A DNA stretch of 64,000 bases from Patescibacteria group bacterium (GCA_041665845.1 JBAYIC010000002.1:64221-128220); one strand, 5' to 3'. Shown: positions 8,642-10,195, numbered from the stretch's first letter. Notes: generated by a model not told the origin, from the letters alone. Made by a program: numbers and translations.

Positions 8642-8671
8642 AAAAGGCTACTTTTTCAAGTAGCCTTTTTT
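8642..8671. terminator. Bidirectional intrinsic terminator between TPM (+) and rnhB (-)
   Basis: Perfect 12-bp stem AAAAGGCTACTT-TTTC-AAGTAGCCTTTT, with an A-run and a T-run on either side. It overlaps the last codons of rnhB. Confidence 0.75.
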
Positions 8672-9327
8672 GATTGAGTAGTTTTTAGGGGAGCAAAAGA
8701 TAGTCGATGAATAGGACAGGCGCCGTATTCTTTGATTTTTTCTAAATGATCTTTTGTCCCGTAACCCTTATGTTTAGCAAATAAATATTCTGGATATTGT
8801 TTATCAAATTCACTCATCAGCCAATCACGGCTCACTTTAGCAATAATAGAGGCGGCGGCAATCGCCCAAACAGTCGCATCGCCCTTAATAATAGCCGTTT
8901 GTGGTTTATCAAGTTTAGGAATTTTAAAACCACCATCAAGCAAAATATAATCCGGCTGTACCCTTAACTTTTTAATGGCCCGGCGCATCGCTAAAAAACT
9001 CGCTTGTAAAATATTTATTTTATCAATATCTTCATTATTTACTATTCCAATTTCTACAGCCAACACTTTTTCTCTAATGGCTTTAAATATTTTTTCTCGG
9101 TTTTTAGCGGAAAGTTTTTTTGAGTCAGCAACTAGCTCTAAATCGCCCGGCTCTATTTTAAAATCGGGGCCAATAACAACGCAAGCCGCTACCACTGGAC
9201 CTGCTAAAGGACCGCGTCCAGCCTCATCAACTCCGCCAATAAGATTGTAACCGAGTTTGAAGAATTTATGTTCAGTTTCTAAATTTAACATATAGTTTAT
9301 TATAGCATATTTGGCTGATTTTAGCAT
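8656..9327 (-). CDS. rnhB: Ribonuclease HII
   Basis: GVDEAGRGPLAGPVVAACVV catalytic block, DSKKLS, ASIIAK. An alternative start at 9291 (MLNLETE...) is possible. Confidence 0.9.
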   Translation of the reverse strand: MLKSAKYAIINYMLNLETEHKFFKLGYNLIGGVDEAGRGPLAGPVVAACVVIGPDFKIEPGDLELVADSKKLSAKNREKIFKAIREKVLAVEIGIVNNEDIDKINILQASFLAMRRAIKKLRVQPDYILLDGGFKIPKLDKPQTAIIKGDATVWAIAAASIIAKVSRDWLMSEFDKQYPEYLFAKHKGYGTKDHLEKIKEYGACPIHRLSFAPLKTTQSKKAT

Positions 9328-9396
9328 ATAATATCTTAAAATAAAGTAAATTAGGGATGATTTATCGCGTTAAGCTGGTTATTGCTGAATCATCAC

Positions 9397-9425
9397 TTGA
9401 CATATTTTTTTATTAATGCTATATT
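9397..9425 (+). promoter_or_regulatory. Near-consensus sigma-70 promoter (TTGACA-17-TATATT with TGn extended -10)
   Basis: TTGACA at 9397-9402, a 17-nt spacer ending in TGC, then TATATT at 9420-9425. No annotated gene starts for another 250 nt. Confidence 0.6.
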
Positions 9426-9461
9426 ATTTTAGCGATTAATTGGTTTTATTAGGAAAGGTGC

Positions 9462-9629
9462 ATGGTTGGTTCTTTGGGAAAGGAACAAAAAAGAAAGAAA
9501 AAAAGGACCAACACACTGGAGGGTGTTATTAAGATGGCGATTACAGAACCATTAAGAATTACATCTCCAGAATTTTTTGAGGGTCGAAGTGCTTGCGTAC
9601 TTTGGCCCTTTTTTCTTTACTTTTTTTAA
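9462..9629 (+). CDS. Candidate small ORF / leader peptide (55 aa; alternative 31-aa form from ATG 9534)
   Basis: Below the ORF-track length cutoff. Manual translation gives MVGSLGKEQKRKKKRTNTLEGVIKMAITEPLRITSPEFFEGRSACVLWPFFLYFF*. It is preceded by AGGAAAGG. The internal ATG 9534 is preceded by GGAGGG at a 9-nt spacing. The ORF runs through the terminator hairpin. It could equally be a non-coding RNA. Confidence 0.3.
   Translation: MVGSLGKEQKRKKKRTNTLEGVIKMAITEPLRITSPEFFEGRSACVLWPFFLYFF
9581..9614 (+). terminator. Intrinsic terminator / attenuator inside the 9328-9679 spacer
   Basis: GGGTCGAAGT (9581-9590) pairs with ACTTTGGCCC (9599-9608), giving 10 bp including 2 G-U pairs. The loop is 8 nt and is followed by TTTTTT (9609-9614). 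Confidence 0.6.
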
Positions 9630-9679
9630 GGAAAGTGTTAATAAGAAGGTAGTTCTTCAAAACCATTTATCTAGCTAGC

Positions 9680-10129
9680 ATGAAAAATAATTCTTATGTT
9701 TTTGGAAGTGGTAAATATAAATATTTTCCACTTGAATCGGTATTTTTAAATAATCCGATTCACATCGCAACGCTTTATCAGGTTTTTTTTGAAAAACAAA
9801 AGCCCGGGCAAGTGAATAATCGATTGCAATTAGCGATTGAAAGCTTACTTGAAAAAATTAAAGCACTTGATTCTACAAAGAATTGTCCTTATTGCAAGAA
9901 GGCAAAAGTAAAATTTTTTCTTTTTCCTGATTATGGCCCAGTAAATAACAAATTGCTTTGTTGCGGTGATGATGCCTGCAGAGAGCATTTAAAATCCGCT
10001 CGATTAGGAGAATTACATGAAATTAACGATTTTCTTCTCTTAATCAGTTATTTACCAAAGCCACAGGCGCAGAAAATAGTGAGCATTTTTAAAATGACAC
10101 ACAATAATTTAGCAGAAGCCTTCGCTTAA
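9680..10129 (+). CDS. Hypothetical Cys-rich protein (possible zinc ribbon)
   Basis: 149-aa ORF containing CPYCKKAKV...LLCCGDDACREH. I recognise no family. It has no promoter of its own downstream of the 9581-9614 terminator. Confidence 0.55.
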   Translation: MKNNSYVFGSGKYKYFPLESVFLNNPIHIATLYQVFFEKQKPGQVNNRLQLAIESLLEKIKALDSTKNCPYCKKAKVKFFLFPDYGPVNNKLLCCGDDACREHLKSARLGELHEINDFLLLISYLPKPQAQKIVSIFKMTHNNLAEAFA

Positions 10130-10164: not shown

Positions 10165-10195
10165 ACCCGTTTTGAAAAAGGCGGGTTTTTCTTTT
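10165..10195 (+). terminator. Intrinsic terminator after the 9680 ORF
   Basis: ACCCGTTTT-GAAA-AAGGCGGGT hairpin followed by TTTTTCTTTT. Confidence 0.6.

Follow-up and report, generated by a model that had tools for sequence, protein, structure and literature searches.

The stretch analyzed here, referred to as the window, is one strand of 64,000 nucleotides from a Patescibacteria group bacterium (GCA_041665845.1, JBAYIC010000002.1:64221-128220). Between the divergent rnhB gene, encoding RNase HII, and a plus-strand open reading frame (ORF) for a cysteine-rich (Cys-rich) protein lies a spacer that holds a near-consensus promoter, a structured segment and an intrinsic terminator. We interpret positions 9397–9614, with moderate confidence, as a putative independent gene for a non-coding RNA of ~185 nt. 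The features of the locus are listed in Table 1, where stems are numbered P2 and P3 and the small RNA is abbreviated as sRNA.

Table 1. Features of the rnhB/Cys-rich spacer and of the adjoining genes; positions are counted from the first letter of the window.
Feature	Position	Strand	Details
Promoter of the predicted sRNA	9397–9425	+	−35 TTGACA 9397–9402, 17 nt, TG 9417–9418, −10 TATATT 9420–9425
Predicted small non-coding RNA, ~185 nt	9431–9614	+	start placed from the −10 box, end from the T tract
5′ region, mostly single-stranded	9431–9462	+	UUGGUUUUAUUAGG, degenerate counterpart of the motif GCUUUGUUCAU(AAG); alignment A2 and fold
55-aa ORF (31 aa from ATG 9534)	9462–9629	+	runs through the terminator; judged non-coding
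P2, 13-bp stem with 26-nt purine-rich loop	9463–9515	+	9463–9475 paired with 9502–9515; loop GGGAAAGGAACAAAAAAGAAAGAAAA 9476–9501; fold
P3, long imperfect hairpin	9516–9570	+	apical loop CGAUUACAGAA 9538–9548; fold
Intrinsic terminator	9579–9614	+	14-pair stem 9579–9610, T6 9609–9614; dG −20.8 kcal/mol, z −5.3
Probable own promoter of the Cys-rich ORF	9616–9644	+	TTTACT 9616–9621, 17-nt spacer, TG 9636–9637, TAATAA 9639–9644
Motif in the 5′ untranslated region (5′UTR) of the Cys-rich ORF	9651–9663	+	AGTTCTTCAAAAC; conserved in the alignment; identical AGTTCTTCAAAA in L057
Cys-rich ORF ("ORF150", 149 aa)	9680–10129	+	invariant C69, C72, C94, C95, C100
Terminator-like hairpin and T run after the Cys-rich ORF	10165–10195	+	terminator scan
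rnhB (RNase HII), divergent upstream neighbour	8656–9291	−	Pfam RNase_HII, E 4.7e-47
Extended −10 of rnhB, TGcTATAAT	9299–9307	−	read from sequence; 7 nt upstream of ATG 9291

In the promoter scan, the putative sRNA promoter matches 11/12 consensus positions and has the TG. Only two sites with at least 11/12 matches and TG, this one included, were found when both strands of the 64 kb were scanned, in agreement with the first-pass annotation, which had counted it among the best promoters of the window. The segment 9430–9616 folds on the plus strand at −51.4 kcal/mol (z −3.3, with 1/200 shuffles as good), and on the minus strand with z −1.4. With the terminator removed, the RNA body has z −2.0 (6/200 shuffles). 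The local pairings noted in the first pass were all recovered as parts of this fold: the GTTGGT/ACCAAC stem around an A-rich tract belongs to the P2 helix, the TGGAG/CTCCA stem is the base of the imperfect hairpin P3, and the hairpin with T6 is the 14-pair terminator of Table 1. The only repeat in the unit is a 2.3-copy A-rich 11-mer. The A-rich P2 loop (9482–9505) can also pair with the U tail of the terminator and the U-rich stretch after it (9607–9628), forming ~19 bp with two single-base bulges (z −2.8). Such loop-to-tail pairing occurs in two related loci as well (L001 and L010) but is absent from the other 13 spacers, and was rejected as a family feature.

Related loci were found via three homologue searches with the Cys-rich protein; the corresponding contigs and six loci from GTDB species representatives were taken. 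All loci were sampled through the Cys-rich ORF, and their whole neighbourhood is syntenic. The resulting set contains 16 distinct spacers, window included, from Falkowbacteria-like Patescibacteria, and in 13 of them the 5′ side is covered. The 149-aa Cys-rich protein of the window is identical to an NCBI entry from a "Patescibacteria group bacterium", and several of its closest relatives are named Candidatus Falkowbacteria. The names of two records look doubtful: L014 (CAZAAD010000001.1), titled "uncultured Gammaproteobacteria", contains a Falkowbacteria-type locus with a spacer identical to that of L004, and L016 (DASROX010000055.1), titled "Candidatus Saccharimonadales", contains the same locus as the Falkowbacteria records.

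Each of the 16 distinct spacers contains a structured RNA of 130–215 nt followed by an intrinsic terminator. A consensus promoter occupies the same place in 13/13 spacers with the 5′ side covered, reaching 12/12 in L022 and L023. The spacers were divided into group A (L003, L006, L011, L012, L013, L016 and L017), group B (L001, L008 and L010) and group C, a short form (L004, L019, L022 and L023), with the window and L015 as outliers. The promoter, a 5′ motif, a stem with a purine-rich loop, one or more hairpins and the terminator recur across the groups. The 5′ motif GCUUUGUUCAU is found in 13/16 spacers; L015 has a varied form of it and the window a degenerate one, and the 5′-cut contigs L008 and L010 begin inside it. 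Each relative has a P2-like stem of differing sequence, the purine-rich loop of which carries an AGGAA, GAGG or GGGA motif. The slot, the promoter, the fold architecture and the terminator are kept in the relatives, and the RNA sequence of the window is not alignable with theirs.

Some of the spacers show local peculiarities. In L012 the 5′ motif is locally duplicated, with two copies of GTTCATAA (2687–2715); in L016, positions 2666–2706 contain two exact GCTTTGT(A/T)... copies of the motif and a third that has diverged. In L001 the 3′ part of P2 (GGGAAAAAGGGGCTTG) occurs a second time immediately after the terminator. The 199-aa call of the Cys-rich gene in L001 and L002 (protein P0002) starts inside the RNA and passes through the terminator (L001 4001–4600); it is probably a 5′-extended miscall of a ~150-aa protein. 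Wider searches added no loci. A DNA-pattern scan of metagenomes (promoter, then GCTTTGTTCAT) gave 30 stretches, of which three were real and all of these were already-known loci; a protein-based metagenome scan found nothing, scans of viral contigs gave chance matches only, and no paralogue of the RNA was found in the 64-kb window.

A structure common to groups A and B was drawn by hand. It consists of P1 (GACGC/GCGUC), P2 (AGCCUU/AAGGCU, with the loop AAAGGAAAAGACAAAAAAUAU), P3 with an apical ACAG loop, P4 (GGGAG-AUGAGC-CUCCC) and the terminator. The hairpin with the ACAG loop (AUAG in L016) is found at the P3-equivalent place in both groups and shows compensatory changes. In alignment A3 the hand-drawn structure is paired in 84.7% of cells, and 11 pairs are changed on both sides; its score was reached by 0/500 shuffles and slid controls scored lower, with the caveat that the structure was derived from one of the tested sequences. 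RNAalifold independently finds P1, the ACAG hairpin, the P4 hairpin and the terminator. A covariance model of groups A and B finds its own members at E from 1e-17 to 1e-31.

Within group A the RNA is 80–98% identical, compared with 40–67% at the fourfold-degenerate third positions of the neighbouring gene, while the same identity measure gives ~0.5–0.6 for unrelated pairs. Given that the fourfold sites are saturated and the RNA is nearly unchanged, the RNA is under strong purifying selection within group A. For L013, L012, L011, L003 and other members of group A, RNA identity amounts to 94–98%, that of the neighbouring protein to 81–93%, and that of the fourfold sites to 44–67%. By this measure, the RNA of group A is more conserved than the adjacent protein.

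The 55-aa ORF with the internal ATG 9534, ending at 9629, does exist as described in the first pass. Its translation, in the 55-aa or the 31-aa form, would make the unit a small-protein gene, and a GGAGG box lies 11 nt ahead of ATG 9534. We consider this highly improbable. The best tblastn match of the 55-aa peptide to the 15 related spacers has E 0.43, and neither the peptide nor the reading frame is conserved among them: ATG ORFs of the relatives are unrelated in sequence and frame, and in L022 and L023 of group C the longest have only 5–6 aa. The ORF also passes through the terminator stem, and a purine box of this kind is used by none of the genes considered: GGAG or GAGG at −20..−4 was found in 0/55 window ORFs of at least 120 aa, which confirms the earlier remark that such boxes are otherwise almost absent from start regions. 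The small-protein reading was rejected, since the ORF is not conserved in the 15 related spacers. A minus-strand ORF that begins with the conserved motif in reverse complement (ATGAACAAAGC) was rejected as well, as its frame is not kept between L013 and L001.

The genome seems to make no use of Shine-Dalgarno (SD) pairing, judging by the starts of these 55 ORFs. This agrees with published work (PMC9297842), in which about half of Parcubacteria are reported to lack the anti-SD motif. By contrast, a distant relative of the locus, L057, carries AAGGAGGAAAAATG ahead of its Cys-rich ORF.

The first-pass annotation had matched the unit to no RNA family, and this held for the window and for four related loci. 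No Rfam 15 model reached its gathering score in the 64 kb. When matches up to E 10 were admitted, 9250–9750 yielded RAGATH-19 alone, which lies on the opposite strand and has 17.9 bits where the gathering score is 85.6. Nothing was found by Rfam on the RNA of L013, L001, L023 and L015, and ARAGORN found no transfer RNA (tRNA) or transfer-messenger RNA (tmRNA) match. Several known classes were rejected. The unit has several separate hairpins and not the single long hairpin with a central bubble typical of 6S RNA, and has no Rfam 6S match; signal recognition particle RNA, tmRNA and RNase P RNA have no model match and a wrong fold or size; and a type III toxin–antitoxin system (ToxIN-like) would need a repeat array, which is absent, with no PADLOC match of the Cys-rich protein.

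The closest likeness is to trans-acting sRNAs of the RybB, OmrA/B and MicF class. With these the unit shares its own σ70-type promoter, variable hairpins that follow a short, conserved and unpaired 5′ motif (the RNA here being 130–215 nt long), a Rho-independent terminator and its T run, the absence of a conserved ORF, and a fixed intergenic position in a narrow clade. A promoter and an intrinsic terminator of its own around a short transcript without a conserved ORF, which serve as the criterion for an sRNA, are present here at the level of sequence. Unlike in that class, almost every nucleotide, not just a seed, is conserved within one subclade. By Rfam there is no sequence relation to described sRNAs, and the likeness is one of architecture, as read from the DNA. 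With the CsrB/RsmZ and CrcZ types the unit shares purine-rich (GGA or A-rich) motifs in a hairpin loop and a terminator-ended RNA; unlike CsrB/RsmZ, it has one large loop with one to three motifs rather than many GGA hairpins, and there is no Rfam match. The ordinary kind of object to which it corresponds is a lineage-specific terminator-ended bacterial sRNA gene without an Rfam match.

The best reading is a lineage-specific trans-acting sRNA, with both the transcript ends and the action in trans being predictions. Transcription would start near 9431 from the near-consensus σ70-type promoter and end at the T tract 9609–9614. The RNA would fold into an open 5′ region, P2 with its purine-rich loop, the long hairpin P3 and the terminator hairpin. 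It would remain untranslated and would not be a leader of the Cys-rich gene, which would be served by the block directly after the terminator. We infer that the RNA may act in trans through its exposed parts, the purine-rich loop of P2 and the unpaired 5′ stretch, which would either pair with U-rich or AU-rich parts of mRNAs or hold an RNA-binding protein, and that the terminator may shield the promoter of the Cys-rich gene from strong upstream transcription. Within the reading as an independent RNA, a base-pairing regulator is a tentative possibility, a protein-binding RNA a doubtful one, and some other role improbable. The near-total conservation in group A exceeds what a seed alone would need and leaves room for a protein-bound RNA. 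A possible RNA-binding partner is encoded in the window: an 85-aa single-RRM protein at 62277–62534 on the minus strand (Pfam RRM_1, E 2.7e-22).

The relation of the RNA to the gene that follows it required separate consideration. The next gene had been described as lacking a promoter of its own. In fact, across the relatives no other part of the spacer is as well conserved as the block 9616–9644 (alignment A2). Its −35-like hexamer (TTGACT, TTGATT, TTGTTT or TTTACT) is separated by 17 nt, usually with TG-n, from a second hexamer that begins with TA; the L022 version reads TTGACT-17-TATATT, matches 10/12 consensus positions with TG and is reported by the promoter scan. The promoter-like block lies between 9615 and 9680, where the first pass had named a promoter as a result that would refute its proposal, and the premise of a dependent downstream ORF is unsupported. 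The Cys-rich gene appears to be a transcription unit with its own promoter-like block. It is possibly monocistronic in the window, as the terminator-like site 10165–10195 directly follows it.

Two more distant loci bear on the same question. The Cys-rich proteins of L055 and L057 are 46% and 32% identical to that of the window, and their spacers, both beside a divergent rnhB, are 132 and 190 nt long. Neither spacer contains the RNA unit or a terminator. Both retain the TTGACT-17-TGa-T... block, which is the sole promoter-like element there, and L057 retains the 5′UTR motif AGTTCTTCAAAA as in the window. As rnhB is read in the opposite direction, transcription of the Cys-rich gene in these loci must begin within the short spacer. 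As the block is kept without the RNA, the RNA unit is a module added upstream, or it was lost in these loci. Because the block and the 5′UTR motif persist without the RNA unit, the RNA is to be regarded as an independent module, not a leader.

The alternative is a cis-acting leader: transcription would mostly stop at 9614, and read-through regulated by a ligand, a protein or a ribosome would feed the Cys-rich ORF. In every RNA-bearing locus the RNA lies on the same strand as the Cys-rich ORF and directly next to it, which is consistent with this model; the adjacency is partly a sampling effect, however, since the Cys-rich ORF served to find all loci. The second promoter of the window is a weak match, as specified below. 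Complementarity to the start region of the gene also speaks for a role in cis. In L019, L022 and L023 of group C, the sequence AACAAAGC(A/G)A at −11 to −1 of the Cys-rich 5′UTR, just upstream of the AUG, is complementary to 9–11 nt of (U)UGCUUUGUU in the 5′ motif (shuffle fractions 0.007–0.1; the three loci are related to each other), and in the window the start region of the Cys-rich ORF ranks second of 55 as an RNA duplex partner (−20.5 against a mean of −13.5, sd 3.4). L004 and groups A and B lack the pairing seen in these three group C loci.

A search for an antiterminator, in contrast, gave a negative result in all 16 spacers: pairing of upstream segments with the 5′ strand of the terminator was no better than in shuffles in any of them (z −1.6 to +1.7), with the best upstream pairings at −4.6 to −10.8 kcal/mol against −14 to −21 kcal/mol for the terminators. 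The RNA sequence turns over between subclades, as seen from the covariance model and the alignments, the leader ORF is not conserved, Rfam gives no match, and in L055 and L057 the gene, its promoter-like block and the 5′UTR motif are present without the RNA. We consider a cis-acting leader unlikely.

Both specific leader models of the first-pass annotation were rejected on these data. A translation-coupled attenuator is disfavoured by the unconserved leader ORF (best tblastn E given above) and the absence of SD use, and a riboswitch-like leader by the lack of an Rfam match and of an antiterminator, by the turnover of the RNA sequence, and by L055 and L057 with no RNA. Its third model, an independent unit, fits in the sRNA version and is not supported in the small-protein version. 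The order of promoter, structured RNA, terminator and same-strand gene is shared with the pyrBI/pyrE attenuators and riboswitch leaders, but a conserved leader ORF, an alternative antiterminator and a conserved aptamer core are absent here, and the gene that follows retains a promoter-like block and occurs in relatives that lack the RNA. The pyrBI/pyrE type was rejected also because dependence of the downstream gene on the leader promoter is not seen, given the block after the terminator and the lack of the unit in L055 and L057; a riboswitch was rejected because no aptamer core is shared, the model of groups A and B missing the window, L015 and group C. In RNAs of the UpsM/Rli51 type, a terminator-ended sRNA lies directly upstream of a conserved same-strand operon (PMC5089854, PMC11394854) and is part of the 5′ leader of the operon; here, a separate promoter-like block follows the terminator.

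Several observations weigh against the interpretation of the window's unit as an independent trans-acting RNA. The promoter-like block of the window is a weak match to the consensus (4/6 and 3/6, with TG), under the threshold of the scan tool, and read-through from the strong upstream promoter into the Cys-rich gene could still matter. The covariance model of groups A and B found in the window only 9468–9509 with E 0.61, which is at chance level; it gave no match in L015 or group C either. Local alignments of the window RNA with the other RNAs have z from 0.5 to 2.7, and the collections contain no close relative of the window's own lineage. The link of the window RNA to the family rests on position and architecture, because there is no detectable sequence homology, and the evidence of selection is confined to the relatives in groups A and B and does not extend to the window's own copy. 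No mRNA-start targets of the AUGAACAAAGC type, complementary to the motif, were found in the retrieved loci or in the window. The duplex ranking and the group C pairing are leads rather than evidence, and the best target lead is weak.

Some of these facts would also be expected if the unit were functionless in the lineage of the window, being either a decaying copy of the family or a promoter–terminator insulator with a by-product transcript. The window RNA cannot be aligned with that of any relative, the 5′ motif is degenerate, and the fold of the body is only modestly above that of shuffles (z −2.0, as given above). On the other hand, the near-consensus promoter is intact, a very strong terminator is retained, the architecture of P2 and P3 is kept, and strong purifying selection acts in relatives. 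The loss of function has, in our estimate, a low probability.

The RNA and the Cys-rich zinc-type protein might also function as a pair, for example by forming a ribonucleoprotein or through control or binding of the RNA by the protein. No family match was found for the protein in Pfam, NCBIfam or PADLOC. Its AlphaFold2 model has a mean pLDDT of 80.6 and a confidently predicted fold; neither the fold nor the sequence has a match in PDB. Co-location in every locus of the subclade, the five invariant cysteines in a protein of no known fold or family, and the near invariance of the RNA in group A, as expected for an RNA with many contacts, are in line with such a pair. At the same time, the protein family reaches relatives without the RNA, nucleic-acid binding by the protein is conjecture, and the loci were sampled through the protein, so that we regard the pair as improbable.

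A broader proposal is that the unit represents a clade-restricted functional RNA inserted upstream of an older unit of gene and promoter, nearly invariant within subclades and rebuilt between them, a pattern that would fit co-evolution with a partner; we consider this quite unlikely. If true, the co-evolving partner could be, for example, the Cys-rich zinc-type protein or the translation starts of a genome without SD pairing. In the latter case the purine-rich loop would be a leftover or a mimic of the SD box.

A literature search for regulatory RNAs of Patescibacteria (Candidate Phyla Radiation) gave nothing relevant. A well-delimited and, as predicted, apparently strongly transcribed sRNA of this kind is a concrete candidate for metatranscriptome studies. 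Its relatives are under clear selection, and a structure has been defined for those of groups A and B. The view of the locus changes as well: the Cys-rich gene is probably a unit of its own, rnhB is probably leaderless, and the 55 starts have no SD boxes.

The start of rnhB was revised by comparison with homologues. The rnhB homologues of L001 and L004 begin with MLNLETE, the equivalent of which in the window is ATG 9291 on the minus strand, not 9327; the true start is thus probably ATG 9291, and the mechanical ORF start at 9327 is probably wrong. The motif TATAGCATAT at the −10 region of rnhB is kept across the related spacers. Because the extended −10 lies so close to ATG 9291 (Table 1), the rnhB mRNA is probably leaderless or nearly so. 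With this start, as in the homologues, the gap between the two genes is 388 nt and not the 352 nt given in the first pass. The claim that it is the largest non-coding gap of the window is plausible, the three larger ORF-free gaps each holding an ORF of 85–123 aa.

Downstream of the Cys-rich ORF, the window contains genes for a Gmad2-domain protein and cysteinyl-tRNA synthetase (CysRS), followed by further genes; those further downstream are annotated in relatives as Dus, a TsaD-family protein and MraZ. The order rnhB, spacer, Cys-rich ORF, Gmad2, CysRS and Dus is kept around the slot in related loci.

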